This document shows positions 40,490 to 64,000 of a DNA stretch of 64,000 nt, piece after piece. Origin of the DNA: an uncultured Dehalococcoidales bacterium (lineage in GTDB: Bacteria > Chloroflexota > Dehalococcoidia > GIF9 > UBA5629); the NCBI GenBank assembly GCA_964437795.1, contig CAYTIC010000001.1, forward strand, positions 86,864 through 150,863, written 5' to 3'. Made by a program: the position numbers and the translations under genes. The notes below the pieces were generated by a model. It did no database searches, was not told where the DNA came from, and saw nothing but the letters and a program-made list of their open reading frames with translations. The stretch's first letter is position 1; the number at the start of each line of letters is the position of its first letter.

Positions 40490-40589
40490 TTCCCCGATAA
40501 CGTGTGTTTCAACGTGATTATTCTATCTATATACCTGCTATAGTTCAACTCCTTAAATGAGCCCTTCTATCGATTAAACACGTCAACCG

Positions 40590-41351: not shown

Positions 41352-41385
41352 GTTGTTAACTCCGATAATTTAGACTGAACGACGG

Positions 41386-42633: not shown

Positions 42634-42654
42634 TTCAGCCCCCCCGATATGAAA

Positions 42655-44211: not shown

Positions 44212-44459
44212 TTACATACCTCCATAAATTATTGCATACTATAGTCGCCGACTACAGTTGCTTTATTTGCGAATATAATAAATGCTTTTAACCGATTTGT
44301 CAATGGGACAATATCGAAGGGGCGCCGCAGGTTCGCATCACGTCTTTTGTTCTATTTGGGTATAATATCAGCCGGCGCCATCGGTTTAGCCTTGCTGCCG
44401 AAGATTTCGCGATATACTGCGTACTATTCAACTGTATTTAAACTGGAGGAGAATCAACT

Positions 44460-45110
44460 ATGGAATCACCTATCGTAAAGGTCAAGATCCTGGGTATCTC
44501 GGGAACGCCGATAAAAGACGGCAACTGCGATAAGCTGGTGCAGACAGCTTTAAAGGCGGCGGCGGGTATACCGGGTGTTGAAACCGAGTTCGTGACGCTG
44601 GCGGACAAGAAGATTGCGGAGTGCAAACACTGCCAGTGGTGCGTAAAAAACAAGGCCAGGTGCAATATCAAGGACGATGTCCATGCCGTGCATGACAAGA
44701 TGTTCGCCGCTGACGGTATCATCATGGGAGGCCCGACCTATTGCCAGGTCTTAAGCACCCAGCTTCAGAATGTCTTTTTCAGGGGCAGGGAGGAGATATT
44801 TTTCGGGCACCGCTGTACCGGTAAGATAGGCGGCGCATTAACGCTCGGCTGGTTCGGCGTCGGCATGGAGTTTGCCCTGAAGGTCATCGAACAGATGATG
44901 ATGAGCTGGCAGATTGTCCCGGTAGCCAGGGGAAGCGCCATAGTTAGCACGTTCTGGCAGGGGGAGAAGGTCAGATACCAGGAGGGCGGCGTGCTGGCCC
45001 ATCCGGCAGGGGTATTCAGCGCCATGGGAGTCGGCACGTCTGTAGCTAAATACGCGCAAATGATGAAGTACGCTAAAGACGCGGGCGTGGGCCTGCCGAC
45101 TAAACCGTAG
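44460..45110 (+). CDS. iron-sulfur flavoprotein (Isf-like, NADPH-dependent FMN reductase fold)
   Basis: Flavodoxin-like N-terminus (KILGISGTP) plus the compact Cys motif CKHCQWCVKNKARC (Cx2Cx2Cx5C) typical of the Isf family. Confidence 0.6.
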   Translation: MESPIVKVKILGISGTPIKDGNCDKLVQTALKAAAGIPGVETEFVTLADKKIAECKHCQWCVKNKARCNIKDDVHAVHDKMFAADGIIMGGPTYCQVLSTQLQNVFFRGREEIFFGHRCTGKIGGALTLGWFGVGMEFALKVIEQMMMSWQIVPVARGSAIVSTFWQGEKVRYQEGGVLAHPAGVFSAMGVGTSVAKYAQMMKYAKDAGVGLPTKP

Positions 45111-46284: not shown

Positions 46285-46314
46285 CTACGCTGTATTCCTT
46301 GCGATCATCTGCAT

Positions 46315-48444: not shown

Positions 48445-49705
48445 TTGACCGCCCTTTCCTGACCGACCCAATAGCCTTCAAAACTGCGCCCGTCGCGTCT
48501 CTGACCGACGATCCCACGTCCATCGGCCTTTTCACGCATCCCGCGGCGTAAATACCCGCCAGGTCGGAGACCATAAATCCGCAGGAGTCTTTGCCGGGTC
48601 CGGCGGGCAGCCAGTCCGTCGCTGCAGGGACCATTCCCGTGGCCAGCACCACCATGTCCACCCTTTGCCTGACCATTTTTCCCTGCTCTGTATCCTCAGC
48701 TTCGACGAAAAGGTCGTTTGTTGCGGGGTCCTGCTTTATGCGTGATACCTTCCCGCGAAGGAACGACACCCCTTGCATATCCTGAATCCGACGGTAAAAA
48801 TCCTCCTGCGTACCCTGGGCCCGCAAGTCGATGTAATAGATGGCCACCCGGGCATCCGGATTGTGCTCCTTAATATAAGTTGCCTGCTTAAGCGAAGCCA
48901 TGCAGCAGACGCCCGAACAGTAGGACAGGTGGTTTACGTCCCGGGAGCCCGCACACTGCACGAATGCGATTGAGGATACCTCTTTTCCGTCCGACGGACG
49001 CACCAGGCGCCCGTCACGCAGCCCGGCGCCTGATGCCAGCCTCTCCATCATCATATTGGTGATTACATTGGGATAAACGCCGAAGCCGAGCCGGTTCAGC
49101 CGGGCTGCATCATAAGATTCCCAACCCGTGGTCACTATAATCGATCTGCAATTGACCGTGACCACCTGCTCTTCCATCTGCAGGTCGATAGCCCCGTAAC
49201 GGCAGGCGGAAACGCATTTTGCGCAATCGCTGCCCGTACAGGCATCTTTATCCACGGTATATGTCGGAGGATATGCCTGCACATGCGGCAGGTAAATAGC
49301 TTTAGTGTTGTCCCACCCGTAGTTGAAATCGTTCGGCCTTTGGACCGGGCAAACCGTTTCACATTCGCCGCAGGCCGTGCAATTATCGTTCACCATGCGC
49401 GGCAGCAGCCGGACCGATACCTTGAAGTCTCCCTCACTTCCCTCAACAGCCTCCACCATAGCCATGGTGAAAACCCTGATTCCCCGATTAACCTTGATCC
49501 GCTTGAAATTGAGCTCGAGGCCGCAGGCCGGGGGACATAGTTTGGGGAAATAGCGGCTCATCCTGACGGCCTTCCCTCCCAGGAAAGGCTCCTTCTCAAG
49601 CAGGATGATCTTGTAACCTATCTCGACCGCCTCAACCGCCGCGGCTATCCCGCTTACACCGCCGCCCACTACCAGGATATCGGTTGAAACAGCAGTCTGT
49701 TGCAT
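48434..49705 (-). CDS. qmoA: QmoA-like HdrA-type flavoprotein
   Basis: 423 aa with an N-terminal GGGVSGIAAA FAD motif. HdrA-like with no extra domains. Immediately downstream of aprA. Confidence 0.8.
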   Translation of the reverse strand: MQQTAVSTDILVVGGGVSGIAAAVEAVEIGYKIILLEKEPFLGGKAVRMSRYFPKLCPPACGLELNFKRIKVNRGIRVFTMAMVEAVEGSEGDFKVSVRLLPRMVNDNCTACGECETVCPVQRPNDFNYGWDNTKAIYLPHVQAYPPTYTVDKDACTGSDCAKCVSACRYGAIDLQMEEQVVTVNCRSIIVTTGWESYDAARLNRLGFGVYPNVITNMMMERLASGAGLRDGRLVRPSDGKEVSSIAFVQCAGSRDVNHLSYCSGVCCMASLKQATYIKEHNPDARVAIYYIDLRAQGTQEDFYRRIQDMQGVSFLRGKVSRIKQDPATNDLFVEAEDTEQGKMVRQRVDMVVLATGMVPAATDWLPAGPGKDSCGFMVSDLAGIYAAGCVKRPMDVGSSVRDATGAVLKAIGSVRKGRSNGK

Positions 49706-49720
49706 AGAGCGCCAGCGTTA

Positions 49721-51610
49721 TCAGCCGACCAATGGGATAACGTCCTTCTTAAATACCGACCATTTGCCGGAAGCGGGGTCCCACCTGCAATTGACGAAAC
49801 ACTTCCAGTTGCTGTCGTCCAGCCGGGGTACATCCGCCCGGAAATAGTAGCCGGGCCACCTGGTCTCTTCCCTGAAGAGCACCGAACGGATATGTGATTC
49901 GGCCTGCCACAGCCGGTGCTGGTTTTCCCAGCAGCGCATGAGCTCGTGGAGGTTTTCGGCCGCCAGTTTTTCCGCATCTTCGCGCAGGAAATCCAGCAAT
50001 TCAAGGCCCTTCTCCAACGAGAGCTTATTGGTCGTAAACTGGGTAGTTGCGCCCCCTGCGTACTCATCCATGATCTTCTGCAGCCGTACCATGAACTGCT
50101 TCGGCTTGAGATAATTTTCGCTGACATCCGGATTGTCGGTAAGTTTGCCGTACTGGTCAAACAGTTCAAGCGGTTTGAAAAGGCGTTTCTTAAGCGCTTC
50201 AACCTGCGCAGTATCGATGTTCGGCTGCTCCGGATGATCGACTATATAGGCGATGGATGCTTTAGCAGCGATCCTGCCTTCGCAATGCGAGCCGTCGGAG
50301 AACTTATGGCTGGATGCGCCGGACGCGTCGCCTGCGCAGAATATCCCTTTCACGGTGGCCATACGGTTATAACCCCAAAAATACTCTTTGGGTGACAGGT
50401 CTTCCGGTCCGCTGACCCATGCGCCCGAAGCGCCTGAATGCGAACCTATGAAATATGGTTCGCAGGCCTGTATTTCTGAGGGCTTTTCCTCGGGCTGCGT
50501 ATTGGTCCCCGCCCAGAGAATGGCCTGCGATATTGTCATATCCAGAAAATCTTCCCACGCTTCCGATTCGACCTCTTTCATGCGTTTTCGCCGTTCTTTT
50601 TCATCGCTGATGGCGGAGAGCATCCTGGCAATTGCTTCATCAGTTCGCATGTACATAGGGCCCTTGCCTTCATTTTGGTCCAGCATCATCAGGTAATTTC
50701 GCAGGTTGGCGGGGATGGGCTTGGACGATCCGTACGGCCCCCAGTTCTCCAGGTCTTTCTTGCGCTCCGACATGTAATCCTGGCCGAGCGCATTGGTAGC
50801 TATAGACTTGAAAAGAAGGAACCATGCGCCGACGGGCCCATAGGCGTCTTTGAAACGAACCGGGATAAAACGCACTTCCTGGCACGTCATCTCGCAGCCG
50901 CTCTTCAAAGTAAAATAGGCGCTTGAACCGCTGTTGAAGGGGGGATACCAGCTCCTTCCCTGCCCTTCACCTACCGAGCGGGGCCGGAATATGTGCACTG
51001 CACCGCCCATGGCCACCAGGACCGCTTTAGCCTTGAATATGTAGAACTTGTTCTCGCGTGTGCTGAAGCCGACAGCTCCTGCAACCCTGTCTCCATCGAT
51101 AAGCGGCTCTACTATGAATACCCGCTCATAGATATTATTTTCGCCAATAGTTGCCAGCGCGTTGCGGGCCGCCTCTGCAACAATGTTTTTATACGATTCA
51201 CCGTTGATCATGACCTGCCAGCCGCCCTCGAATACATAGTCGCCTTTATCGTCTTTCCAGATGGGAAGGCCCCACTTCTCGAAGAGGTGCACCGTGCTGT
51301 CCACGTGCCGCGCGATATCGTATACAAGGTCCTCGCGGGAGATGCCCATCAGGTCGTTCCTGACATAGCGCACGTAGTCTTCCGGGGTCTTGTCCCTGCT
51401 CTTCATGCCGACATACATATTGAGAGCGGAAAGCCCCTGTGCGACCGCGCCGCTGCGCTCGATGGCAGCCTTGTCGACCAGCGTCACCTTCAGGTTGTGC
51501 CTCTTCGCCCAGTAAGCGGCTTCGACCGCGGCGCCGCAGGCCGCCATGCCGCCGCCGATGATAAGCAGGTCGGTGTTTACTTCTACCGTCTGTATTTCTG
51601 ACATGAACAA
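49721..51610 (-). CDS. aprA: adenylylsulfate (APS) reductase alpha subunit
   Basis: 629 aa fumarate-reductase-type flavoprotein with an N-terminal IIGGGMAACGAA motif. Has the tight gene order aprB-aprA. Confidence 0.9.
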   Translation of the reverse strand: MFMSEIQTVEVNTDLLIIGGGMAACGAAVEAAYWAKRHNLKVTLVDKAAIERSGAVAQGLSALNMYVGMKSRDKTPEDYVRYVRNDLMGISREDLVYDIARHVDSTVHLFEKWGLPIWKDDKGDYVFEGGWQVMINGESYKNIVAEAARNALATIGENNIYERVFIVEPLIDGDRVAGAVGFSTRENKFYIFKAKAVLVAMGGAVHIFRPRSVGEGQGRSWYPPFNSGSSAYFTLKSGCEMTCQEVRFIPVRFKDAYGPVGAWFLLFKSIATNALGQDYMSERKKDLENWGPYGSSKPIPANLRNYLMMLDQNEGKGPMYMRTDEAIARMLSAISDEKERRKRMKEVESEAWEDFLDMTISQAILWAGTNTQPEEKPSEIQACEPYFIGSHSGASGAWVSGPEDLSPKEYFWGYNRMATVKGIFCAGDASGASSHKFSDGSHCEGRIAAKASIAYIVDHPEQPNIDTAQVEALKKRLFKPLELFDQYGKLTDNPDVSENYLKPKQFMVRLQKIMDEYAGGATTQFTTNKLSLEKGLELLDFLREDAEKLAAENLHELMRCWENQHRLWQAESHIRSVLFREETRWPGYYFRADVPRLDDSNWKCFVNCRWDPASGKWSVFKKDVIPLVG

Positions 51611-51623
51611 TATCCCCCGGATT

Positions 51624-52076
51624 TCAGTCCTTTTTTAACGTCGGTAATTTTTCGATGCCCAGTGATTCTGGCTCAGTGAACAACAGCGGGCTTTTCAATT
51701 CGTCAGCCTCAGGCGCTGTATTAAAGCCCCCGTCCGGAACCGCCGAGCCCTCGGGAGTGGTGCGGGTGCGAAACTTAAAGCGCTTGATGGCGCCGTTTCT
51801 GAATTTCACGGTCCAGATGATGCTGTCGCTGCCTCTCAGAGGTGTAACACTCGCTCCAAGGGGCACGAAATCCGCGTATCCCCTGACGGCTATAGCCTGC
51901 TGAGGGCATATCTTTACGCAGCTATAGCATTCCCAGCACATGGAAGGGTCGCGGTTGAATGCCTTCTGCGTCTCTCCATTCAGGGCCATCAGGTCGTTGG
52001 GACAAATGTACTGGCAGGCTGTCTTATCCTTGCCTTTGCAGCCGTCACATTTACTGATGATTACAAAACTCGGCAT
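51624..52076 (-). CDS. aprB: adenylylsulfate (APS) reductase beta subunit
   Basis: 150 aa starting MPSFVIISKCDGCKG, with CWECYSCVKICPQ. Two 4Fe-4S motifs and the C-terminal tail typical of AprB. Confidence 0.9.
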   Translation of the reverse strand: MPSFVIISKCDGCKGKDKTACQYICPNDLMALNGETQKAFNRDPSMCWECYSCVKICPQQAIAVRGYADFVPLGASVTPLRGSDSIIWTVKFRNGAIKRFKFRTRTTPEGSAVPDGGFNTAPEADELKSPLLFTEPESLGIEKLPTLKKD

Positions 52077-52091
52077 ATCCTTATTCCTTAT

Positions 52092-52916
52092 TTACATATA
52101 GCCCAGGCCGCGCAAGCGTTTCATCATCTTTTCCTTGTCCTGCCGCCGGCCCGCTCTCTCCGTCGTGTGTTCAAGGTCCTGCTCCCAGGCAGGAACGCCC
52201 GGGGCCGCTATGGCGCTGGTGGTCTTTGCTCCCAGCGATCGATAGCCTTTTTCGTACAGTATGCAATAGGGTATTTTAAATACCTGATACGTGTTCCATA
52301 GCTCTCTCTCCGAGAAGTGCAGTATGGGCTTAATGCGCGTATGCTGGGGGATCAGGTAGGCCGCTTCTTTTACCTCGAAATAGTCGTCCTCGGCACGGGC
52401 GTTCTGCTCGTCCCTCCGCAAACCCTGGAAGATCGCCTTGACCCCGTTCTGTTCGATATACACGTTGAACATGACCGTTTTCATCAGGTGATTGCCGGTA
52501 TATGATTCAGCCTCGAAGGGAAATGTATCTTCCTTGTAGTCTATGCGCTTGAGTTCAGCCTGGTTTCTCTCGTTTAAATCCTTGACCTTGACGATGTTAT
52601 TCAGCTTGCCGCCGGCGGCCTTGATAACATCATCGTTGCGCATCCATGTCAGATCCAGCTTCCATTCCGCCGCATAGCGGTCCATGAAATCGTGTATCTC
52701 GTCGAAGGTATCGAACTCGTCTATCGTCATGACTTTGGGGACCTTTATTTTGTCCTCCTGGCAGACCTGGCGAATAATCCACAGCGCAAGCGTGCTGTCC
52801 TTGCCACCCGTCCAGGTGATAGCAAGATCATCCAGCTTAAACTTGCCGAATGACTCCCTGACTATTGCCTTCGACTTGTCGATCAGTCCCGCGCATTCTT
52901 TTTCCATACTGGCCAT
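52092..52916 (-). CDS. CysD-like protein (sulfate adenylyltransferase small subunit / PAPS-reductase fold). No adjacent CysN.
   Basis: PP-loop motif TWTGGKDST, central RRDEQNARAED (compare CysD ARRDEEKSRAKE), and a C-terminus TTERAGRR...KMMKRLRGLGY resembling the CysD C-terminus TTSERQGR...MELKKRQGYF. Confidence 0.65.
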   Translation of the reverse strand: MASMEKECAGLIDKSKAIVRESFGKFKLDDLAITWTGGKDSTLALWIIRQVCQEDKIKVPKVMTIDEFDTFDEIHDFMDRYAAEWKLDLTWMRNDDVIKAAGGKLNNIVKVKDLNERNQAELKRIDYKEDTFPFEAESYTGNHLMKTVMFNVYIEQNGVKAIFQGLRRDEQNARAEDDYFEVKEAAYLIPQHTRIKPILHFSERELWNTYQVFKIPYCILYEKGYRSLGAKTTSAIAAPGVPAWEQDLEHTTERAGRRQDKEKMMKRLRGLGYM

Positions 52917-52932
52917 TATCGGTCCCCCTTTT

Positions 52933-54138
52933 TTACTTTATCCATCTTTTTATCCTTGGTTTGAGCCTGGATTGCAGCCTTACTGTCTCCTTTGAAGACT
53001 GTGCAATATCGTGCAACTCACCCGGGTCGTCCTTGAGGTCATACAGCTCCCAGCGGTCCGGTTCCGCCCTGTAGATCAGCTTCATGTCGCCTTCCCGGCA
53101 GAAATACACATCCTTATTGATGTCGCCGCCTTTGACGCTTTTATTGTCGATGGCCTCACCGAAGGCGCCCTTTTCAACATATGCCCCCACGGGCAGCAGT
53201 GATTGTCCCTGGAAAGACGCCGCCGGATCGATACCGAAAAGGTGGAGAATAGTGGGCGGAATGTCTATGCTGCTGACCAGGCTGGAGCATACACCGCTTG
53301 AATCCGCCCCGTATATCAGCAACGGGACATCGATCAATTCCGCATACAGCTTGTCGTCGTGCGACAGCCCGCCGTGCTCGTTAAACTCATCCCCGTGGTC
53401 GCTGGTCATGATGACGGTGGTGGAATCGAGTATATGCAAATCCTCAAGCGATTTAAATAACGACTGTACGTAAGAATCCACCTCGCGGACGTGCACGTCA
53501 TACAGCCGTTTCAGCAGTGTTACCCTGGCGGGATCCGAGACGTCCCTCTTGAGCAGAGTATCCTCAAACAGCGCATACATCTCGTCCTGGCTGATCTTAA
53601 TTTCGGGGTCTACCATGTCTACATAGCTTCTTTCCGGCATATAAGGCTCATGCACGTCCATGTAATGAAGCCATAAAAAGAACGGAGCATGGTCTTTCTT
53701 CTTTACATAGGACGAAAGCCACTGCACTACCTTGTCATTGATCGTGTAACCCCGCACATATGACAGGCGTTCATCTTCGAGATCGTCGTCCAGGGAGTCA
53801 TAGAACACGTCCCATCCCCGGTCCCAGCCCAGCACGGAGCTGCAATAGGGATTGGAATGGAACCCGGCGGTGTATATGCCGGCTTTTTGCAGTACCTCCG
53901 ATACTATGGAGCGCCGGGGCGCCAAACCTTCGGGCTTACCGTAATCCAGGTAGTACCCCGAGCACAATATGGCGGGAAACGACGCCTGGGTATAAGGACC
54001 GGCGCTCTGGCTCCCGGTAAATACTATGCTGCGGTCTTTGAGGGAGTCGACGAACGGGGTTAATCCCCTGGTATTACCATACAGCCCGAATACATCCTTC
54101 CGGGTTGCATCCAGTGTAATCAAGACAACGTTTTTCAT
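52933..54138 (-). CDS. sulfatase-family (alkaline-phosphatase superfamily) protein, cytoplasmic, lacking the C/S-x-P-x-R formylglycine motif
   Basis: N-terminal VVLITLDATRKDVFGLYGN metal-binding motif. No signal peptide. The expected CxPxR position reads FTGSQSAGPYTQASF. Confidence 0.65.
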   Translation of the reverse strand: MKNVVLITLDATRKDVFGLYGNTRGLTPFVDSLKDRSIVFTGSQSAGPYTQASFPAILCSGYYLDYGKPEGLAPRRSIVSEVLQKAGIYTAGFHSNPYCSSVLGWDRGWDVFYDSLDDDLEDERLSYVRGYTINDKVVQWLSSYVKKKDHAPFFLWLHYMDVHEPYMPERSYVDMVDPEIKISQDEMYALFEDTLLKRDVSDPARVTLLKRLYDVHVREVDSYVQSLFKSLEDLHILDSTTVIMTSDHGDEFNEHGGLSHDDKLYAELIDVPLLIYGADSSGVCSSLVSSIDIPPTILHLFGIDPAASFQGQSLLPVGAYVEKGAFGEAIDNKSVKGGDINKDVYFCREGDMKLIYRAEPDRWELYDLKDDPGELHDIAQSSKETVRLQSRLKPRIKRWIK

Positions 54139-54168
54139 AGTGATAATTGATTGAAAAAGGGGCCGGAC

Positions 54169-55497
54169 TTAATATCCCAGCCGTTTCATCCTTGTTTCCA
54201 TCTTCTTCTTTTTATCGGCGCTGCTTGCTGCCGGACGTGCTGCCTGTGTTGCAGGGGCAGACTGGTCGGTGGCTATTTCGCTGGAGGCCTTGCCCTTCAC
54301 CAGCGTCCCGGCCGTGCTGCCGGAAATCGGCCTTGCCTGGGGGTTGAACGCCTCCGGCCCGTACAGCCTGTTCCACATGTCGAGTTTTTCCGAGTCAAGC
54401 TTTCTGCCCTGCAGTCCCGGGTAGTCCGGATCATAGCGGTGGCAGCGGAATGTGCAGTTGCTCAGGCCGTAAGGTGAAAGGGTATCCCTGTGGTTATAGA
54501 AAGGCACTATATATTCCCAGACGATTTCGCCTGTGGTGGTAACTTCGAAGAAACGCCCCATCCCGCCTTCGCACACCAGCGTATTGCCGTTGGGCAGCCG
54601 TTCACAGCCGCCGATATAGGTCGTATTGAAATCTACGGGGTTCTCTTCCCTGAACTCCCACTCGACCTCGTTGGTTTTGGGGTTCACTTCAACGACGCGG
54701 CTGCCGTCCGGCGGGAAGTAATCAACGTTGTACCTGTTGTTATTGAGCACCAGTATGTTGCCGTTATCCAGCAGCGTGGGGTTGTGCGGCATAGAGAGGA
54801 AGCCTTTTCCCCAGCGCCACTTGAAATCGCCGGAACTCCTGTCGATGATAAAAAGGTTGTCGCAGCCGAAAGAACATAACATGATGTCGCCGTTGGGCAA
54901 TTCCTCGAGTGAATTGAGGCCCACCCATGCCAGGCGCATCTGCAGCGGCGCGAAACAATCGAGCTCGAGGTCGAAGTGCTGATAACCCAGCCATTCCCAG
55001 GCTATTTTGCCCTGCGGGGTGATCTCCTGTATTACGTTGCCGTGAAGAGGTATGTCAATGCCGAGGATGCCTTTAGGAGACACGCCGCCCTGCACTTTGG
55101 CGGCTATTTCTTCCGGAATCGGGACGTACTTCATGATAAGCGTATTGCCGTTCTTGCTGCGCTTGCGATCATGGGCGTCCATGTTTTCATCCTCGTATTT
55201 CCAGACCACATTGCCGTCCCAGTCCAGTTCAACGACGCGTTTTGCCACAGTCGGTATCGATGAAGGAGGCGCTCCCACGTCATCCAGGGCACACAGGATA
55301 TTCCCGTTGGGAAGCAGGTCCGCATGCAGGCGCACCCACCCCGGCAGTTTCCAGCGGTGAACGAAACGTCCCTGCATATCGATCAGCCAGGTATTGCCCG
55401 GTACCTGTGTCATTGGGCTGAACAACGTGAAGCCGGGATATGCTTTGTGTGGTTTATACTCGGTAACCGATTGTAATGCTCTTCTTGCGGATGGCAT
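54169..55497 (-). CDS. arylsulfotransferase (ASST)-like beta-propeller protein with a CysD-like C-terminal tail
   Basis: Repeated NGN[IT]L / DxDGN blade motifs (LPNGNILC, DWDGNVVW, KNGNTLIM, LDNGNILV, LPNGNTLV). A low-complexity linker precedes the terminal ...KKKKMETRMKRLGY. Confidence 0.5.
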   Translation of the reverse strand: MPSARRALQSVTEYKPHKAYPGFTLFSPMTQVPGNTWLIDMQGRFVHRWKLPGWVRLHADLLPNGNILCALDDVGAPPSSIPTVAKRVVELDWDGNVVWKYEDENMDAHDRKRSKNGNTLIMKYVPIPEEIAAKVQGGVSPKGILGIDIPLHGNVIQEITPQGKIAWEWLGYQHFDLELDCFAPLQMRLAWVGLNSLEELPNGDIMLCSFGCDNLFIIDRSSGDFKWRWGKGFLSMPHNPTLLDNGNILVLNNNRYNVDYFPPDGSRVVEVNPKTNEVEWEFREENPVDFNTTYIGGCERLPNGNTLVCEGGMGRFFEVTTTGEIVWEYIVPFYNHRDTLSPYGLSNCTFRCHRYDPDYPGLQGRKLDSEKLDMWNRLYGPEAFNPQARPISGSTAGTLVKGKASSEIATDQSAPATQAARPAASSADKKKKMETRMKRLGY

Positions 55498-55563
55498 ATG
55501 ACATATCCTCCTCTCAGTATTAAAAATCGTTATTGCTGAACTTAAATCTATTACTTTAAATGA

Positions 55564-55576
55564 GGATTGGCAATAC
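55564..55576 (-). promoter_or_regulatory. 13-bp motif GTATTGCCAATCC (copy A), 67 bp upstream of the ASST-like start. Shared with the MFS promoter region.
   Basis: Exact 13/13 match to 56469-56481, in the same orientation relative to the downstream gene. Both copies are followed by CATT(T)AA. Confidence 0.45.
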
Positions 55577-55693
55577 TCAGGCCGTGGTATTTTAGAAAAC
55601 GGTTGTGGCGTGGACCGGCATCACTATGTAGCGGGAAACGGGCTGCCGGAACACTGATTCAACTACTATCGGAGTATTATGCGGGGGAACAGG

Positions 55694-56335
55694 TCAATAA
55701 TGAGCTATCAGCCAGGCCGCCGCTTCACCGCGTGTGTGCAGACACACCTTCTTCATCACGTTTCGCATATGCACTTTGACCGTATTCTCCGATATCGAGA
55801 GCGTCGCAGCTATATCCTTATTGACATGGCCTTTGCCGACCAGCGCGAGGACTTCCCTCTCCCTGTTAGTCAATAACGGCACACGGACATGCACCTTTTT
55901 CTGCAGGCTGTCGAACGTATGCAGTACGCTGTTTGCCATTTGCGGGGAAAGCACCAGCTCACCGTCGGCGATCAGGGTAACGGCCTTCACCAGGTTTTCA
56001 AGGGTTATGTCCCGGGTTACATAACCGGACGCTTCGTGATGAATAATCGTGCCCAGGTCCTGTTGCTCTTTGGGCCATCCGAACACGAGTATTTTCACAT
56101 CGGGCATGTCACGGTGGATAAGCGATATCACCTCGTCATAGGTACAGGCCCTTATCTCGGAGTCGATCAGCACCACATCCGGCTTTTCGCGCTGGGCAAT
56201 TTTGACCACCTCGAATCCCGTGCTGCATACTCCCACGACGCGGATGGCCGTGTCGGATTCCAGCAGTTTCGGCAACGCTTTACAAATAATGTCCATAGTA
56301 TCGGCAACTATGAGCTTTACCGCTGTGCTAACCAA
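55694..56335 (-). CDS. LuxR/NarL-family response regulator (REC domain plus LuxR-type HTH)
   Basis: The C-terminal LTNREREVLALVGKGHVNKDIAATLSISENTVKVHM is a LuxR HTH. The track ORF starts at a TTG at 56395. A better start is the TTG at 56335, which has an AGGAGG RBS 8 nt upstream and gives MVSTAVKLIVAD... Confidence 0.7.
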   Translation of the reverse strand: MVSTAVKLIVADTMDIICKALPKLLESDTAIRVVGVCSTGFEVVKIAQREKPDVVLIDSEIRACTYDEVISLIHRDMPDVKILVFGWPKEQQDLGTIIHHEASGYVTRDITLENLVKAVTLIADGELVLSPQMANSVLHTFDSLQKKVHVRVPLLTNREREVLALVGKGHVNKDIAATLSISENTVKVHMRNVMKKVCLHTRGEAAAWLIAHY

Positions 56336-56468
56336 TCTGCTTTCCTCCTGCCGTTCAACGACAGCATAATACCATGGTATTAGTGGCGTAAACAATATGT
56401 CAAGTAATATGTATGACGTTACAGGTTATATTGACTTACATTCAAATTCTCAATCTAACCCCCTATTG

Positions 56469-56481
56469 GTATTGCCAATCC
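56469..56481 (+). promoter_or_regulatory. 13-bp motif GTATTGCCAATCC (copy B), about 51 bp upstream of the MFS transporter start
   Basis: Exact 13/13 match to the reverse complement of 55564-55576. Confidence 0.45.
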
Positions 56482-56531
56482 CGCCATTAAGGTTTAGATT
56501 TTATTGTAAATCGGGGAGACAGGAGGGACAT

Positions 56532-57821
56532 TTGAGCGAAATAAAGCAGAAGTATAAAGTGGGCGGCAGTGGAGCGGTCTTCGTACTCATCATTCTATTC
56601 CTCCTTTATATCCTGAACTTCGCCGACCGGGCCATAGTGGCAATCGTGCTGCAGCCGATGAAGGAAGCGCTGCAGTTGACCGATGCCCAGGCGGGGGCGA
56701 TGCAATCCATTTTCCTGCTGGGGGCAGGTCTGCTGATGATTCCCGGCGCCATCTTTGTAGAAAGGTGGAGCCGCCGCAAGATGCTGGGCATTATGGCCCT
56801 TATCTGGAGCGTGGCCACGTTTGCCACCGGCCTGGGCACAAAATTCTGGCATATCATGTCGGCCCGGTTCGTGGTCGGCATCGGTGAAGCGGGCTATAAC
56901 CCCGGCGGCACCGCCTGGCTGTCCCTGGCTTTTTCCAAGAAGGTCCGGGGCAGGATACTTGGTTTATTCCAATCGGCGGCCCAGGTCGGTATGGCTGTAG
57001 GACTGATAATAGGAGGCCTGATAGTCACGCAGACCGGCGATTGGCGCATGCCGTTTTACATTTTTGCCATACCTGGAATTATATTGGGCATAATCACCTT
57101 CTTTCTGCCCGACTATGCAACGGTAAGGGAAAAAGGCGAAGCCGTTTTCAACAAGAAGTTTTTCTCCGAGGTGCTCGGCCTCTTCAAGATTAAGACGTAT
57201 TCCCTGAACATCATAGCCCAGTGCCTGTTTGCCTTTATCAGCATGACCATTCTGGGCTGGCTGCCCGCCCTGCTCATGAGGGCCTACAATATAGACGCGT
57301 TTCAGGCAGGCACAATTAACGGCCTGACAAGCCTGATAGTCCTGATCGGCGCGCCCCTGGGCGGCTTCCTGGGTGACAGGTGGCAGGCAAAGAAACACGG
57401 GGGCAGAGCTTACTTTATGGTAGTCGCCATGCTTGCTTATGCGATTGCGGCGACACTCATGATACTGTCTACTAATTATTCCCTGACAATCTACATCGTT
57501 ATGGCTTCGCTCGCTTCGTTTTGCTCTGCGCTGGCATTGCCGGGCCTTTTCGCCATCTGGACGGATGTACTGTCGCCCAAACACCGCACCACCGGTATCG
57601 GCATGGGCACCATGATTTCACTTGTCCTGGGCGCTGTGCCGGGACCGTTGTTTGTCGGTGCGGTATCCGATGCCCTGGGCGGAGGGGTCTTCGGCCTGAG
57701 AAGCGCATTCCTGCTGATGATGCCTGCGGCGTTTATAGCCACGATAATGTACTTCGTTATGTCCAGGTACTATCCCGCAGACAGTGCTAACATAAGCGAC
57801 GACGTCCTGGCAGAAAAGTAA
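56532..57821 (+). CDS. MFS transporter
   Basis: Start placed at the TTG at 56532 (AGGAGG RBS 5 nt upstream). The track's ATG at 56397 adds about 45 non-hydrophobic residues. 12-TM MFS architecture with LNFADRAIV motif A. Confidence 0.75.
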   Translation: MSEIKQKYKVGGSGAVFVLIILFLLYILNFADRAIVAIVLQPMKEALQLTDAQAGAMQSIFLLGAGLLMIPGAIFVERWSRRKMLGIMALIWSVATFATGLGTKFWHIMSARFVVGIGEAGYNPGGTAWLSLAFSKKVRGRILGLFQSAAQVGMAVGLIIGGLIVTQTGDWRMPFYIFAIPGIILGIITFFLPDYATVREKGEAVFNKKFFSEVLGLFKIKTYSLNIIAQCLFAFISMTILGWLPALLMRAYNIDAFQAGTINGLTSLIVLIGAPLGGFLGDRWQAKKHGGRAYFMVVAMLAYAIAATLMILSTNYSLTIYIVMASLASFCSALALPGLFAIWTDVLSPKHRTTGIGMGTMISLVLGAVPGPLFVGAVSDALGGGVFGLRSAFLLMMPAAFIATIMYFVMSRYYPADSANISDDVLAEK

Positions 57822-57858: not shown

Positions 57859-59520
57859 TTAGCCGGACTTCAACATCTCCCGCAGTTCACGTTTCAATAT
57901 CTTGCCGATGGCGCTGGTGGGCAGCGCATCCATAAATACGATTATCTTGGGCACCTTGTAAGGGGCTTCGCGCTGCCTGATGTAATCGCGTATCCTCTCC
58001 TTTTCAGACTCGGACTTCTCGATGCCCTCCTTGAGCACGATGGCGGAGGCCACCATCTCGTTGCCCGGCCGGTTGGGATCGGGAACGCCGATGGAGGCAG
58101 CCAGCGAGATATCGGGGTGCTCGATGATTATGTCATCAAGCTCGCGGGTGAATACCTTGTAGCCCGAGACGATTACCATGTCCTTGAGGCGGTCGACGAT
58201 ATAGATATAGCCTTCCTCGTCCATACGGCAGACGTCGCCGGTGTAGAACCACCCGTCTTTGAGGGCATTGGCCGTCTCCTCCGGCTTATTATGGTAACCC
58301 TTCATCACCTGCGGACCGCGCACCACCAGCTCGCCGGGCTCTCCCACGGGTACCGGCTCTTTGGTGGCGGGATCGACGATCTTGACCTCGGTATCGCCGA
58401 CGGGTAAACCGACCGAGCCGAACTTTCGCTTGCCGTAGCGGGGGTTGGCCGCGATGAGGGGACAGGTCTCGGTCATGCCGTAAACCTCGCTGAACTTGTC
58501 CTTGCCCACGATGTCCTCGAATCCCTTGAGATACTCAACGGGGAAGGGCGCCGCCCCGGCGATGCAGCCCCAGATGCCCGAGAAATCCAGCTCGCGGAAC
58601 TCAGGCTTCTTCATAAGTTCGAGATATATGGTAGGCACGGCCGTGAGCACGGTGGGCTTGTATTCCTTGATGCTCTTGATGATAAAGTCGTAATCGCGCG
58701 GGTTGGGCAGGGCAACCTGCGGCGTAGCCCACACCAGGCAGAACAGCCCGAGGAACAGGCCTGCCTGGTGAAAGAGCGGGAAGGGGCACAGTATGCGCTC
58801 CTGTCCCTTGACTGCGTCAACGTAGTTGCCCCACTGGATCATGTGGCGGACCACGTTGTTGTGCGTCAGCACAGCCCCCTTGGAGGGCCCGGTCGTGCCG
58901 CCGGTGTATTGCATCAGGAACGGCTCTTCGCCTTTGACCCTGATATTCACGGGATCGGCCGGGTACTCCTGCATGAGGTCGGTGAACCGGAATACCGGGA
59001 TGGGGGATTCGGGCAATTTGAGCGGCTGCGCATTGGGCAGAAAATCGCTGAAGCCCGTCAGCGCCATGCCCTTCAGTTTGACCTTGTCGATGACCTGGCT
59101 GATATTGCCCCAGAACACATCGAGCGCCAGCAGGAACTTGGCGCCCGAATCGTTGAGCTGGTATTCAAGCTCCCTGGGCGTCAGCAGCGGGCTGATGCCG
59201 GTAAGCACACAGCCTGCCCTGGAGATGGCCGGTATGGCGATATAGTAAGCGGGCAGGTTGAGCGAATACACCCCCACCACATCGCCCGGTTTCAATCCCT
59301 GCCTGATTAGAAAAGCGGCAAAACGGTTGGACAGCTCGTCGACCTGCCTGAAAGTTATCTCTTTCCCCATGTAATTCACCGCGGTGATATCCGGCACCTC
59401 GTTAACAGCTTCCAGGAAAAGGTCTGTGAACATCTTGTTCTCGGGGTAGTCGAAGTGGGCTTTCACGTGCGGGTCGAAGGACTTCTGCCAGAATTTACCG
59501 GCATAAGGATCACTCACCAT
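57859..59520 (-). CDS. AMP-dependent acyl-CoA synthetase (long-chain fatty acid-CoA ligase-like)
   Basis: Motifs YTGGTTGPSKGA and GYGMTE. 553 aa. Confidence 0.85.
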   Translation of the reverse strand: MVSDPYAGKFWQKSFDPHVKAHFDYPENKMFTDLFLEAVNEVPDITAVNYMGKEITFRQVDELSNRFAAFLIRQGLKPGDVVGVYSLNLPAYYIAIPAISRAGCVLTGISPLLTPRELEYQLNDSGAKFLLALDVFWGNISQVIDKVKLKGMALTGFSDFLPNAQPLKLPESPIPVFRFTDLMQEYPADPVNIRVKGEEPFLMQYTGGTTGPSKGAVLTHNNVVRHMIQWGNYVDAVKGQERILCPFPLFHQAGLFLGLFCLVWATPQVALPNPRDYDFIIKSIKEYKPTVLTAVPTIYLELMKKPEFRELDFSGIWGCIAGAAPFPVEYLKGFEDIVGKDKFSEVYGMTETCPLIAANPRYGKRKFGSVGLPVGDTEVKIVDPATKEPVPVGEPGELVVRGPQVMKGYHNKPEETANALKDGWFYTGDVCRMDEEGYIYIVDRLKDMVIVSGYKVFTRELDDIIIEHPDISLAASIGVPDPNRPGNEMVASAIVLKEGIEKSESEKERIRDYIRQREAPYKVPKIIVFMDALPTSAIGKILKRELREMLKSG

Positions 59521-59668
59521 GCTGCAACCTCCTCAAACTATAAATCTGCCAGGATTTCTCTGTTTGTGCCCATCCAGTTTATCAAGGTTCTCTTATACAG
59601 TAAACATCAGCAGCCTTTGAAAAGGGGGTAAGGGTTTGCTATCATTCAAACCGCACTTGTAAAACCAT

Positions 59669-59899
59669 ATGGACCTGATAAAGACCCTCAGCAATGTCCT
59701 CGGCGTGATCTGCATCATTATCGGCGTTTTTCTGATACCGCTGAGCATCTGGTTTATTAAGCCGGCCATTAAAAACAAGGACAGGGTGTCCCTTGTCGTG
59801 GCGATCATTATCCTGGCCCTGTCAGCGGCCTGCTTCGTCGGGGCGTACATCATGTTTACAACCGGGCTGATTAAAATGGCCCCGACGCGGCTATACTGA
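59669..59899 (+). CDS. small membrane protein (2 TM)
   Basis: 76 aa hydrophobic ORF. Confidence 0.35.
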   Translation: MDLIKTLSNVLGVICIIIGVFLIPLSIWFIKPAIKNKDRVSLVVAIIILALSAACFVGAYIMFTTGLIKMAPTRLY

Positions 59900-59906
59900 A
59901 ACTTCT

Positions 59907-60665
59907 TTAATAGACTGCGCCGCCATCCAGGAATATGGGGTGCCCCGATATGTAGCCGCCTTCGTCGGAGCACAGGAAAACACAAAGGTTCCCCACGTCA
60001 GCCGGCTGACAGATCCGTCCGAACGGCAGATTCCTGGCCAGTTCTTTCACTTCCATCCCCATTACGCCTTTGATCAGTCGTGCGCCCATATCGGTCTCCA
60101 CCAGGCCGCAGGCGATGGTGTTCACCCTGATATTGTGGCTTACCTCTTCCTTGGCCAGGCAGGAGGACAAGGCGTTGAGCCCTGCCTTGGCTACCGCATA
60201 GGGAGAATGCCCCGCCATGCAGCTGAAAGGGCTCACCGAGGATATGTTGATGATATCGCCGCGCTTCTGTTTCCTCAGTGCGGGCAGGGCTTCTTTAATG
60301 AAATAGAAGGCGCCCATCACGTGAATTTTGAAAAGCCGCTCCATCTCCTCCACTTCGGTATCGGCCACAAACCTCCCGCGTGAAGCTATGCCTGCATTGT
60401 TGACCAGTATGTCGATCTTACCGAACGTGTCGATTGTTTTGGCCACAACGGCCTTAACCTGTGCATAGTCGGTTACGTCGGCCTGTATCGACAGCGCCCG
60501 CCGTCCCAGTGCAACGATCTCCCCGTCAGTCGCTTTTGCCGCATCGGCATCGCGCCGGTAGTTGTACGCAATATCAGCGCCTTCCCCGGCTAAAGCGAGC
60601 GCTATACCTTTACCGATACCCCTGCCGCCGCCGGTAACCAGGGCTACCTTTCCTGATAATTTCAA
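59907..60665 (-). CDS. SDR-family oxidoreductase (FabG-like)
   Basis: TGGGRGIGKG motif and catalytic YAVAK. Confidence 0.85.
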   Translation of the reverse strand: MKLSGKVALVTGGGRGIGKGIALALAGEGADIAYNYRRDADAAKATDGEIVALGRRALSIQADVTDYAQVKAVVAKTIDTFGKIDILVNNAGIASRGRFVADTEVEEMERLFKIHVMGAFYFIKEALPALRKQKRGDIINISSVSPFSCMAGHSPYAVAKAGLNALSSCLAKEEVSHNIRVNTIACGLVETDMGARLIKGVMGMEVKELARNLPFGRICQPADVGNLCVFLCSDEGGYISGHPIFLDGGAVY

Positions 60666-60678
60666 GACTGACCTCCTG

Positions 60679-63078
60679 TTAAGGCTGTAATATTAGAACC
60701 TGCGATAGTTCGCCTGTAGAAAGGAAATGTGTTGCCACCTGTTGTCCGTTTGCCCACATTTGCGCAAGGTCGCCGTAATACGGGCTTAAGAGCAACCCAG
60801 ATTGGCCGGGCGGACTCATGATAGTCGAGTTTTCCAGATCGGACATGTCCACTATAAGCCTGATGACGCCGCCGGAATCCATGGCATAGGGATTCTTGCT
60901 GTCCCACATGCCCGCATTGATAGTGAACCCATCACCGTTAGTCGGGATGGGGCTGAGGTTATAGAACCCAAGCTTACTGCCGAGGGGATGCTTGAATGTC
61001 ATCTGGTGGACCTTTCCCCATTGCCATTTTGAAGGATCCTGTCCCAGCCTGGCCGACAGCTCCGCTATGGCATCCTTCATGCTTTTCTTTATGATGTCAT
61101 CGCGGGTTTCCCTGATACCGGCCGTCGTGAGGTCATCGTAAAAGGGATTATTGTTATCGTTCACCATAGCGGTGAGCAGCCTGTCCGGAATATATATCTG
61201 GTAATCCTGAGTGATCTCTGCGTTCAATTTCGCACCGACCTTGTTTTCGAACGTATTCTGCACCATATACTTGTAGAACGCGTTGAAAAGCGTGGCCGCC
61301 GGGCTGTTAACGTCGGATGAATAGTTCCAGCCCTTAAACAGGCCCAGTGCCGGCTTCATATCGTCCATGCTGTCGCAGGCGGCCAGTACGAGCGGGACCC
61401 AGTATTGCGCCTCCACCGAGACGTTGTCCAACTGCATTTTCCTGATCTCATCAAAGGTGAACCTGTCCTTGCTCCCGACTATCTGCTGGAAGCGCAGGGC
61501 ACGCTCAATCATCCAGAAGTCAGTGATATGGTAGTCGACTTTTTTCGGGACGTTATTGAAAGACGCCACGTACCCCTGGCTCGGATTTAAATCGTATGGA
61601 AGTTTGTCGAAGGGGACATAGCCGGTCCAATCGTATTTGCCCTCGTCACCCGGCACAGGCAGAGTGCCATCGCCTGTCTTGCGCACGGGCGGGGATGCGA
61701 TATACTGGTAACCTATATTTCCATAAATATCGGCATAGCCGAAATTCAGCGTAGGTGTGCGCACCACGCTTAACGCACTGCGAAACTCATCGAAATTCCT
61801 GGCTTTATCCAACGCGATAAAACCTTCCATGATGCCGAGGTGAGGATGAAGGCCTACCCACATCATGGCGCAGTTGACAGGCGCCCTGGGCATTACATCG
61901 GATATGATAGGGCCATGCCGGGATATCCTGACCCGCAGTTTCTCTTCCCTGATCCCATCCTTACCCTTGACCCTGATGGTCTCATCAACTATCTTGAAAT
62001 TCTTATAACCGTCTTCGGTCAGGTATTGATCAGCGTCGGCGGGGTTTATCTTTTCGATGAAGAAGTCCATCTCGTCTCCCCTGCCGTTGGTGGTGCTCCA
62101 GGCGAAATAACGATTAAGCCCGAGCACGTTGATGGTAGGGGCGCCGGGTATGGAACCTCCCATCACGTCATAGTCGCCGCCCTTAAGGTGCACGAGGTAG
62201 AACAGCGCCGGTATGGTGGGAGCCAGGTCCGGGCTGCCTGTGAAAACGGCCTTCCCCGAAGCAGTACGTTTGCCGGAAAAGATCATCCAGTTGCTGGCGG
62301 CAGTATCCAGGGGGAAGGGACTATTGATATCACCGCTCCCGGTCACCGCGCCGGCAACCCCCGTCGCAGGACGATCAACACCGGATGTGGCAGGCGGAGG
62401 CGCGGCACCCGGACCGGATATCGTGGGCGCATCGGCGGGCACAATGGGGATGATCGTTTTCAGTATTTCGCTTCCGGCTGAGTTGCCGATTTGATTGAGA
62501 ATGAGCTCCGTATCCTTGGAACGGTTGAGGCTGTAGGCCATGAGTATCCCGCAGACCATGGTATCCTGGGGTTTCCATGTTTGAGGCTTAAACCCGAGGA
62601 TGGTGTATTCACTGGGAAGGTACCTGGCATTATCTATATAGGCATTGACCCCGCGGGCATAGGCATCCACTATGGATTTAGCGCCCGGTTCCAGTCCTGA
62701 ATATTCTTCTTCGGCGGCGCGGTAGAACCCGATCGTTCTGAAGTATTTATCCGTGTCAAGCATTATGTCGCCCAGCACCGACGAAAGCTCACCCCTTCCT
62801 GCCAGACGCGTCATATCCATCTGGAACATCCGCTCGCGGGCGGTGATATAACCCTGTGCGAAAAAGAGGTCCTCCTCGTTCTGAGCAAAGATATGTGGTA
62901 TGCCGTGCTCGTCGGTGCGTACTTCAACCCTGGCCGAAAGACCTTTTATGGTCTCGGTGCCGGAATATGCGGGCTGAGGAAGCCTGAATACTACCTGCAC
63001 GGCTATTGCTGCTATTATGACTAAAACAAGTATGACGCTCAGCGATATAATCAGTGCCTTGCCCTTTTTCGATTTCAC
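60679..63078 (-). CDS. penicillin acylase-family Ntn-hydrolase (penicillin amidase / AHL-acylase-like)
   Basis: 799 aa with an N-terminal signal/TM. The SNWMIFSGKRTASGKAV segment is the typical N-terminal nucleophile region of the beta subunit. Confidence 0.8.
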   Translation of the reverse strand: MKSKKGKALIISLSVILVLVIIAAIAVQVVFRLPQPAYSGTETIKGLSARVEVRTDEHGIPHIFAQNEEDLFFAQGYITARERMFQMDMTRLAGRGELSSVLGDIMLDTDKYFRTIGFYRAAEEEYSGLEPGAKSIVDAYARGVNAYIDNARYLPSEYTILGFKPQTWKPQDTMVCGILMAYSLNRSKDTELILNQIGNSAGSEILKTIIPIVPADAPTISGPGAAPPPATSGVDRPATGVAGAVTGSGDINSPFPLDTAASNWMIFSGKRTASGKAVFTGSPDLAPTIPALFYLVHLKGGDYDVMGGSIPGAPTINVLGLNRYFAWSTTNGRGDEMDFFIEKINPADADQYLTEDGYKNFKIVDETIRVKGKDGIREEKLRVRISRHGPIISDVMPRAPVNCAMMWVGLHPHLGIMEGFIALDKARNFDEFRSALSVVRTPTLNFGYADIYGNIGYQYIASPPVRKTGDGTLPVPGDEGKYDWTGYVPFDKLPYDLNPSQGYVASFNNVPKKVDYHITDFWMIERALRFQQIVGSKDRFTFDEIRKMQLDNVSVEAQYWVPLVLAACDSMDDMKPALGLFKGWNYSSDVNSPAATLFNAFYKYMVQNTFENKVGAKLNAEITQDYQIYIPDRLLTAMVNDNNNPFYDDLTTAGIRETRDDIIKKSMKDAIAELSARLGQDPSKWQWGKVHQMTFKHPLGSKLGFYNLSPIPTNGDGFTINAGMWDSKNPYAMDSGGVIRLIVDMSDLENSTIMSPPGQSGLLLSPYYGDLAQMWANGQQVATHFLSTGELSQVLILQP

Positions 63079-63131
63079 CTGATCACCTCCAGTCTATAAT
63101 TGCCTGAGCTAAAAACGTCCCTGCATGACAT

Positions 63132-64000
63132 CTATCTTACATCAATGCTTTTGTTCGCTGCCGGGAAAACGTCCAGCATCACGAAGACCTGCGTTTTTGC
63201 CGGCAATGTTGTCGCAGCAGGTATGGACAGCGTGACGGACTTGAGGTTCCCGTCCGCGCCGGCCTGCATAGCAGTATTGGCCAGGTAGTCCATATAGACG
63301 GCCTCGGTCTTCTGGGGGTCCACCAGCAGCAGCGCGGCCCGGTGGCCGGTTATGGGATAGGAGACGCCGGGATCTACGCTAAATTCAGCCGTCACCTGTC
63401 CGGCGGCTTTTCCGTCCGACGGCTTGAAGTCGATCCCGGCCACGTGTACACCCTGCGGCGCGCGGTTGGCCGTTCCATCGTAGGGACGCGTTACGTATGT
63501 GCCGGAGACCAGCAGCTTCTGGTACCAGTTGTTGGCCAGGCCGGCGATTACCATGTACGGCCCGAATGTGGGTATACCGAGCGTATCGGTGTCTGCGAAG
63601 GCGGCAGCGTAAGACGTACTGCCCTCGGCGTCAAGGCGGCCCCTCAACTCGAAAAGGTTGAAAGGTATCTTGATGCCCGTGATGGCCATGGGGAAGTTCT
63701 GGTCCTGTAATATGAGATCGGACCCCAGGTAACATCCGTTCAGAGGTATGGCGAAATCGCCGGCGGGGTCCGCCATCAGGTTGCCTTTGTCGTCATGCCT
63801 GGCGCCGATGGCCCAGAGAATTAATTTGCCGCGGCCGTCCGCATCCGGCGCCGCTATGGCCACCGGCCCGATCAGCCAGTCGATATAGTCGAAACCTATC
63901 TGGTTGAGGCTGGGCAGCATGGTGGGAATGGGCGCCGCCAGGCGCGTCCATTCCAGGCCGGTCACCTTATCTTCCGCAATGCTTAAAGGCAGTGTCCCGG
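63132..64000 (-). CDS. hypothetical protein, partial: the N-terminus lies beyond the window end
   Basis: The 'M' in the track at 63965 is a GTG. The frame stays open to 64000 (manual translation upstream gives ...GTLPLSIAEDK-VTG... with no stop). Confidence 0.4.
   Translation of the reverse strand, partial: GTLPLSIAEDKVTGLEWTRLAAPIPTMLPSLNQIGFDYIDWLIGPVAIAAPDADGRGKLILWAIGARHDDKGNLMADPAGDFAIPLNGCYLGSDLILQDQNFPMAITGIKIPFNLFELRGRLDAEGSTSYAAAFADTDTLGIPTFGPYMVIAGLANNWYQKLLVSGTYVTRPYDGTANRAPQGVHVAGIDFKPSDGKAAGQVTAEFSVDPGVSYPITGHRAALLLVDPQKTEAVYMDYLANTAMQAGADGNLKSVTLSIPAATTLPAKTQVFVMLDVFPAANKSIDVR

Follow-up and report, generated by a model that had tools for sequence, protein, structure and literature searches.

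How a transporter gene and a sulfur operon that point away from each other might be switched on together is the question raised by a 64-kb stretch of DNA from an uncultured Dehalococcoidales bacterium (64,000 nucleotides of contig CAYTIC010000001.1, hereafter the window). A gene for a major facilitator superfamily (MFS) transporter (56532-57821, plus strand, with a TTG start) is separated from an operon on the minus strand (45139-55497) that encodes an arylsulfotransferase-like (ASST-like) protein, a sulfatase, a CysD/CysH-fold protein, AprB, AprA, QmoA-like and QmoB-like proteins and an HdrBC-like CCG protein. Between them lies a regulator gene (55694-56335, minus strand), whose 213-residue product was recognized by domain and homolog searches as a NarL-like protein with a receiver domain and a LuxR/GerE-type helix-turn-helix (HTH). 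The same 13-mer, GTATTGCCAATCC, stands upstream of both the transporter gene and the operon, and an earlier note on this DNA took it for a shared motif through which the LuxR/NarL-type regulator co-regulates the two. Our analysis indicates that the 13-mer marks part of a larger element; we consider it likely that the locus holds two sigma-70-type promoters, each with a NarL-type operator of two heptamers set 2 bp apart (7-2-7), and that these operators are read by the regulator encoded between them, most likely as an activator.

Results

A pattern search found exactly two copies of GTATTGCCAATCC in the window, copy A at 55564-55576 on the minus strand and copy B at 56469-56481 on the plus strand. 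This confirms the coordinates given in the earlier note, as well as the like orientation of each copy relative to its own gene and the presence of the LuxR-type regulator gene between them. Copy A precedes the ATG (55497) of the first operon gene by 66 nt, and copy B precedes the MFS gene, whose TTG start is at 56532 (not 56533), by 50 nt. The further claim that chance would seldom repeat an exact 13-mer inside 1 kb did not hold up for the window as a whole: when 64 kb of the same composition are simulated, exact 13-mers recur within 1 kb about 1.3 times as inverted and 0.9 times as direct pairs, the window itself contains 3 inverted and 9 direct pairs, and an exact inverted pair at this distance is not rare in 64 kb. 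The expectation for an exact 13-mer match within the two 196-nt intergenic regions alone is 7e-4, which is fair only if these regions were chosen beforehand, and the match is therefore a lead and no proof. A match with two mismatches at 14110 is within chance expectation and was discarded. The reality of the finding rests on placement and conservation rather than on the exact match.

Loci for comparison came from a scan of genomes, a scan of metagenomes and seven additional look-ups, and 14 non-redundant ones were used. The scan of the genome collection gave one true ortholog (L003, from a Dehalococcoidia metagenome-assembled genome), and the other 79 loci, which are distant paralogs, served as negative controls. 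The regulator falls in a clade of about 43 cluster representatives, all from metagenomes, that share 68-98% identity, the next identity being 45% or lower; loci with regulators as distant as 68% still show the gene order MFS, divergent regulator, ASST-like protein, sulfatase. Both sites are kept in the 14 non-redundant orthologous loci, with flanks and spacers randomized, and the absence of the motif from orthologous loci, which had been named beforehand as grounds for abandoning the idea, was not observed. In anchored alignments of 14 operon-side and 14 MFS-side sites the information content is high from about -58 to -28 and again at -10, and is near zero in the flanks and in most of the spacer. 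The operon-side consensus reads AAAATAC.ACg.CcTGAGTATTGccAAtCc ... ttATAgATT and the MFS-side consensus AAATaTAAtCcCcg.T.gGTATTG..Aa ... GtATTAGAtTT. Only GTATTG(C/T)(C/T)AA within the 13-mer is well kept; the closing ATCC is weak on the operon side and lost on the MFS side. The CATTTAA or CATTAA that had been pointed out directly after the two copies is indeed present, within the promoter spacer, but is not kept in orthologs.

A 30-nt matrix was built from the ortholog sites only, leaving the window out. It scores the two window sites at 37.0 and 28.5 bits, against 8.6 bits for the next best position in the window and a shuffle maximum of 16.6 bits (30 shuffles), and it gave no match above threshold in 656 kb of unrelated loci. 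The genome-wide pattern search that had been suggested for defining the regulon was thus carried out at the scale of the 64-kb window, where the exact motif occurs twice and the leave-out matrix finds the same two sites only.

Read against these alignments, the 13-mer is not the functional unit. In both copies it is a composite of the last 3 nt of an operator (GTA), a -35 hexamer (TTGCCA) and the first 4 nt of a poorly conserved spacer (ATCC). The proposal of a shared cis-element stands, while the 13-mer as its functional unit does not: the operator reaches 13 nt further upstream, where the two copies differ. The predicted operon promoter consists of a -35 hexamer TTGCCA at 55568-55573 (minus strand), conserved as TTG(C/T)(C/T)A in orthologs, and a -10 hexamer TAGATT at 55545-55550 (minus strand), which appears as TA(G/A)ATT in 14 of 14 orthologs. 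The MFS promoter, likewise predicted, has TTGCCA at 56472-56477 and TAGATT at 56495-56500 (both plus strand). The predicted frame of TTGCCA, 17 nt and TAGATT(T) is common to both copies. In the large majority of ortholog sites TA(G/A)ATT falls in register, and one site (L089) has a spacer of 18 nt; the hexamers are conserved and the spacer sequence is not, and the 17-nt spacing in the window lies within the 16-18 nt of sigma-70-type promoters. TTGCCA agrees with the -35 consensus at five of six positions and TAGATT with the -10 consensus at four of six, the non-consensus G of the latter being conserved in 11 of 14 operon sites.

Immediately upstream of each -35 hexamer lies a 16-bp operator of 7-2-7 form. 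The operon operator, TACCACG-GC-CTGAGTA (55574-55589, minus strand), has the highest score in the window (17.9) under a symmetric 16-mer model, and the MFS operator, TAACCCC-CT-ATTGGTA (56456-56471, plus strand), occupies the same position relative to its own -35 hexamer. Operator and -35 abut without a gap at both window promoters and in 28 of 28 ortholog sites. The center of the operator is 31 bp upstream of the -10 hexamer at both window promoters, which corresponds to -43.5 by the convention of the NarL literature (PMC9314961, PMC10853779) and is the place of a yeaR-like, non-canonical class II activator site. An A-rich block (AAAA/AAAT) is also conserved directly upstream of both operators, at about -52 to -57 (55590-55596, minus strand; 56449-56455, plus strand; and in the ortholog sites); it could be an UP-element-like contact for the alpha subunit of RNA polymerase, or part of the operator.

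The 7-2-7 form emerges from the alignments themselves. With the proximal arm kept fixed, each of the two site sets, taken separately, is most symmetric at a spacer of 2 bp (4.07 and 3.50 pairs out of 7), against a chance level of about 1.75 pairs and no more than 2.8 in other registers. All 56 half-sites start with TA and 40 of the 56 with TAC, giving the consensus TA(C/A)(T/C)(C/A)(A/C)(G/C). The heptamer consensus of NarL is TACYYMT; each half-site agrees with it at 4-6 of 7 positions, and all but one of the 56 agree at 5 or 6, with position 7 being G/C and not T. For NarL 7-2-7 sites the palindrome TACCCCTAAAGGGGTA has been quoted (PMC4549865).

Other readings of the conserved stretch were considered and set aside. 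A sigma-54 promoter would need GG-N10-GC spacing, which is absent on either strand. A divergent promoter for the regulator, made from TTGGCA on the strand opposite copy B and a conserved TATATT, would have a spacer of only 15 nt, and a better promoter, which is conserved, lies nearer the regulator gene. The conserved blocks lie upstream of the predicted -10, and a search of 55300-56700 for structured RNA of the riboswitch or leader kind gave no Rfam match at E values up to 1.

The regulator has the domains expected of a NarL/FixJ-family protein, an N-terminal receiver (Pfam Response_reg, 3.2e-12) and a C-terminal HTH (GerE, 2.2e-18), and aligns over its full length with the structures of NarL, VraR and DevR. 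NarL is its best solved homolog (E 1.8e-26), without gaps over residues 10-209. In NarL the bases are read by Lys188, Val189 and Lys192, and His190 touches the backbone (PMC10853779); the residues of the regulator aligned with these base and backbone contacts, K187, V188, R191 and H189, are invariant in the clade. Lys174 of NarL, which contacts the C-terminal domain of the polymerase alpha subunit (alpha-CTD), aligns with K173 of the regulator; Arg178 of NarL aligns with an alanine. The protein is NarL-like but, by its NCBIfam score, not a NarL ortholog.

The receiver presents a different picture. The phospho-acceptor is kept, D58 of the regulator aligning with D59 of NarL and being invariant in the clade, but three of the five signature residues are missing: D12-T13 stands for the acidic pair, G86 for Ser/Thr and R108 for Lys. 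These assignments come from alignments to NarL and VraR, and the atypical residues are invariant in 20 clade members. The half of the protein that reads DNA is thus like that of NarL, and the half that receives the signal is atypical. No histidine kinase gene adjoins the regulator in any of the fetched ortholog loci, and none was found among 20 Pfam-annotated open reading frames between 39.8 and 64 kb, nor by a crude regular-expression search over the rest of the window, which is a weak negative. With three signature residues gone from the receiver and no kinase gene found in the vicinity, control may be independent of phosphorylation. The earlier note had placed the cognate kinase outside the window; none is found within it, as stated, but in view of this receiver and of orthologs without a kinase beside them it may not be a mere matter of location.

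More distant relatives separate the regulator from its present neighbors. In three loci (L093, L094 and L095) the regulators are 41% identical to that of the window and share its recognition helix, TVKVHMRN. In front of the regulator gene of each locus the element TACC(C/T)A(G/C)-TT-NGTGGTA abuts TTGACA, with TA(G/A)ATT 17 nt further on (L093, 473-570; L094, about 1322-1380; L095, about 351-410). The combination of 7-2-7 site and promoter therefore follows the regulator family rather than the target genes, and its recurrence in relatives with other neighbors is the best computational argument that this family binds these sites. The link to the operon does not extend so far: in L093 the downstream gene encodes a membrane protein that is not ASST-like, and the link holds only in the 68-98% clade. 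The opposite strand of L093 has, in addition, a divergent site of the GTATTGTCA type, with a matrix score of 19.7.

Two further 7-2-7 sites lie close to the regulator gene. Under the symmetric 16-mer model, which was derived from the proximal sites, four of the six best scores in the window fall within 1.1 kb around the regulator, two of them at sites not used in the model. One is a perfect 7-2-7 palindrome, TAATACC-AT-GGTATTA (56367-56382; score 14.2; not used in the matrix), which covers the -10 hexamer of the predicted promoter of the regulator itself (TTGACA at 56403-56398, N18, TACCAT at 56379-56374, minus strand; 10 of 12 consensus matches, with TTGACA conserved in orthologs). The site reaches a score of at least 8 in 10 of 14 orthologs, one of them a locus (L161) that has no adjacent MFS gene, and the gap between palindrome and TTGACA is 15 nt in 13 of 14, although its sequence varies. 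Its place over the -10 of the regulator's own promoter makes the palindrome a candidate site of negative autoregulation, comparable to repression by NarL at frdA. The other is a distal site, TAATACT-CC-GATAGTA (55664-55679, minus strand), just after the stop codon of the regulator gene and 90 bp, center to center, upstream of the operon operator; it is found in about half of the orthologs, 76-90 bp away.

Two other candidates were explained otherwise. The 9-mer GCATAATAC, common to both sides at about 105 nt upstream of each 13-mer, was considered as a duplicated segment and resolves into these two sites, the palindrome and the distal one. A 16-mer match inside the sulfatase gene (TAATCCC-CT-GGTATTA, 54061-54076, plus strand, score 14.3) is attributed to chance, since orthologs change its synonymous positions.

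The targets themselves are best defined by what the orthologs retain. In the window the first operon genes encode an arylsulfotransferase-like protein of 442 residues, a sulfatase of 401 residues and a protein of 274 residues with the PAPS-reductase fold, most like CysD/CysH; AprB and AprA both score above the NCBIfam equivalog cut-offs. The genes that follow the sulfatase vary. The window, L001 and L158 have aprBA there, L159 and L160 have a gene for a phosphodiesterase-domain protein, and L154 has one for an 1103-residue sulfatase. The conserved unit therefore consists of transporter, regulator, ASST-like gene and sulfatase, and not of the apr genes. Of the co-regulation of transporter and sulfur operon proposed at the outset, the part that holds generally is the core of MFS, ASST-like and sulfatase genes, while aprBA-qmo belongs to it only in some orthologs.

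Discussion

Our study describes a new example of a well-known type of switch, a NarL-family regulator with 7-2-7 operators, in uncultured Dehalococcoidia-like bacteria. The conservation of both sites, their 7-2-7 form, the NarL contact residues of the regulator and the 41% relatives together bear out the core of the original proposal, and there is good in silico support for the view that the adjacent regulator controls both the MFS gene and the operon. We propose that a dimer of the NarL-like regulator binds the 16-bp operator at both promoters and, positioned at about -43.5 just upstream of the -35 hexamer, would activate the transporter and operon promoters together, in the manner of NarL at yeaR. 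The third 7-2-7 site, over the -10 of the regulator gene, would provide negative autoregulation, and some lineages have a fourth site, 90 bp upstream of the operon site.

The closest parallel is the yeaR promoter of E. coli, where a single 7-2-7 site, TAACCAATAAATGGTA, is centered at -43.5 just upstream of the -35 and one NarL dimer activates through the alpha-CTD, as seen by cryo-electron microscopy (PMC10853779). The window promoters resemble it in having a 16-bp site of two inverted heptamers with 2 bp between them, which directly precedes the -35 and is centered 31 bp from the -10, and the MFS site TAACCCCCTATTGGTA shares 11 of 16 positions with that of yeaR. The regulator shares with NarL the K, V and K/R of the recognition helix and, in K173, a counterpart of Lys174. 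It differs in coming from another phylum, in falling below the equivalog cut-off, in a receiver that lacks three signature residues, in having no NarX/NarQ-type kinase found nearby and in the replacement of Arg178 by alanine. The targets here are organosulfur genes, unlike the nitrate-responsive yeaR, and the -35 is strong, whereas that of yeaR has been described as intrinsically weak.

Other NarL-controlled promoters offer partial likenesses. In derivatives of ogt a single NarL site 32 bp from the -10 (-44.5) suffices for activation (PMC9314961), and the native promoter has sites at -44.5 and -77.5 (PMC9314961, PMC4549865). Like ogt and napF, the promoters described here have a promoter-proximal 7-2-7 site near -44 and, at some loci, a second site upstream; the second site differs in lying 76-90 bp away instead of 33 bp and in being present in only about half of the orthologs. 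At frdA a NarL 7-2-7 site lies near the transcription start (PMC4549865), and the palindrome described here likewise covers a predicted -10 and start, a placement that would block polymerase; the difference is that here it would serve autoregulation, on a predicted promoter.

LuxR-type proteins outside the NarL group provide two further comparisons. The lux box is a 20-bp dyad centered near -42.5 that is bound by a dimer of a LuxR-type HTH protein. The operators of the window resemble it as dyads that overlap or abut the -35, and the operon site extended by 2 nt on each side forms a 20-bp dyad, AATACy-N8-rGTATT; the regulator, however, has a receiver domain in place of an autoinducer-binding domain, and the half-sites are of NarL type. 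VpsT binds cyclic di-GMP. It is akin to the regulator (PDB 3KLN, E 1.1e-13) in combining a non-canonical receiver-like domain with a LuxR-type HTH, with no partner kinase found, but here Asp58 is retained and the similarity is weaker than that to NarL.

Several observations weigh against the interpretation that we favor. The best NCBIfam model for the regulator is that of NarL (the PRK10651 equivalog), yet it scores 127.7 bits where the cut-off is 250. The 16-mer model is low in information, and single matches to it are not significant against shuffles (maxima 11.5-17.1). The distal half-site of the MFS operator starts with TAA, not TAC. The ortholog loci are related by descent, and counts of conserved sites among them are not independent events; the scan of the source genome covered 64 kb. 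Finally, a -35 hexamer that matches five of six consensus positions is unusual for an activator-dependent promoter and would suit repression too.

The last point leads to the explanation that survives best beside ours, in which the same sites and the same regulator serve repression: bound next to the -35, the protein would obstruct RNA polymerase until a signal made it let go. With a -35 as good as TTGCCA the promoters might need no help to fire. Repression from 7-2-7 sites is known for NarL itself, frdA being an example (PMC4549865), and the predicted site over the -10 of the regulator gene is a repressive placement at this very locus. The operators of the two target promoters, on the other hand, abut the -35 without covering it or the -10, and -43.5 is the position from which NarL activates at yeaR, ogt and napF; moreover, the -10 TAGATT is weak (4/6) and keeps its non-consensus G in 11 of the 14 operon sites. 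The position of the operator and a weak -10 with a conserved non-consensus G lead us to favor activation over repression, and the strong -35 leaves repression some room; as an account of both promoters we consider it unlikely.

It is very improbable that the operators are real but are bound by another transcription factor, encoded elsewhere in a genome of which 64 kb are visible. No ortholog locus has the regulator gene without the sites, not even the one that lacks an adjacent MFS gene (L161), and the two also go together in the 41% relatives with different neighbors. In addition, the half-sites are heptamers of the type recognized by the K-V-(K/R) helix that the regulator and NarL have in common.

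We give scarcely any credence to the idea that no dedicated regulator is involved and that the two 13-mers agree simply as ordinary -35 regions, their extra identity being due to chance or to a habit of the lineage. About 1.3 inverted pairs per window arise by chance and TTGCCA is simply a good -35, both of which this view can claim. It does not account for the further 13 nt upstream of the -35 that are conserved and dyad-symmetric at both promoters, nor for the restriction of GTA before a -35, in promoter context, to these two places in the window. GTATTG occurs 34 times in the window, with about 31 expected, and only the two occurrences considered here stand in promoter context; GTA before the -35 is therefore no general habit of the genome. 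The matrix has no other match in the window and none in the control loci, and we rejected a lineage-wide promoter habit on these grounds. That the blocks are instead the -35 and -10 of an alternative sigma factor may practically be discounted: both promoters do have an unusual -10 (TAGATT) and an extended upstream block, and the HTH of the regulator scores weakly against models of sigma-70 region 4, but in sequence and in their spacing of 17 nt the hexamers agree with the housekeeping type, a dyad-symmetric upstream block suits a dimeric factor and not a sigma factor, and the protein lacks sigma region 2 and carries a receiver domain.

If activation by the adjacent NarL-like regulator is taken as the working model, the nature of its signal invites speculation. 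The make-up of the operon is unusual, with ASST-like, sulfatase and CysD/CysH-fold genes directly upstream of aprBA, qmoAB-like and HdrBC-like genes, and it hints at a route from sulfate esters to adenosine 5'-phosphosulfate (APS) or sulfite. Such a route might run from import through the ASST-like protein, the sulfatase and the CysD/CysH-fold protein, and deliver APS or sulfite to AprBA-QmoAB for energy conservation. The broadest version of this picture is that the regulator is an orphan, phosphorylation-independent NarL-like sensor of an organosulfate or sulfur intermediate, which switches on an undescribed sulfate-ester route and its transporter in uncultured Dehalococcoidia; we rate it as improbable. 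A search of one library of papers for this cluster or its regulation in Dehalococcoidia found nothing specific.

The value of the analysis lies in a testable regulatory map in uncultured bacteria, which comprises four 16-bp sites, three predicted promoters and one candidate regulator. The genes on this map encode a transporter, an arylsulfotransferase-like protein and a sulfatase, to which some lineages add APS reductase and its electron-transfer partners. The switch is conserved and therefore tells which genes act together in the use of organic sulfur, and it offers a handle for finding the inducing compound. It also places the NarL 7-2-7 arrangement at -43.5 far outside the proteobacteria, with a receiver that may not use a kinase.

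Some features of individual loci are recorded here for completeness. L158, L159 and L160 each have two tandem MFS genes. In L160 each of the pair has its own copy of the MFS-type operator and promoter (3448 and 4898, minus strand); in L158 and L159 the matrix scan finds a site only before the MFS gene that adjoins the regulator. In L161, which lacks an adjacent MFS gene, the regulator is flanked by sequence full of short direct-repeat families (4400-6400; 34-73 nt, with 2-4 copies each), and the operon operator and promoter are intact right beside the ASST-like gene.

The flanks of the locus in the window (39869-45110 and 57859-63965) are of acyl-CoA type, with two AMP-binding ligases, a thiolase-like protein, three short-chain dehydrogenases, a flavin mononucleotide (FMN) reductase and a TetR regulator; a penicillin-amidase-family gene lies at 60679-63078. 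Two direct copies of a 190-nt segment (38956-39145 and 39226-39415), 82% identical and 270 nt apart, are found a few hundred bases from the TetR-family gene (39869-40489).

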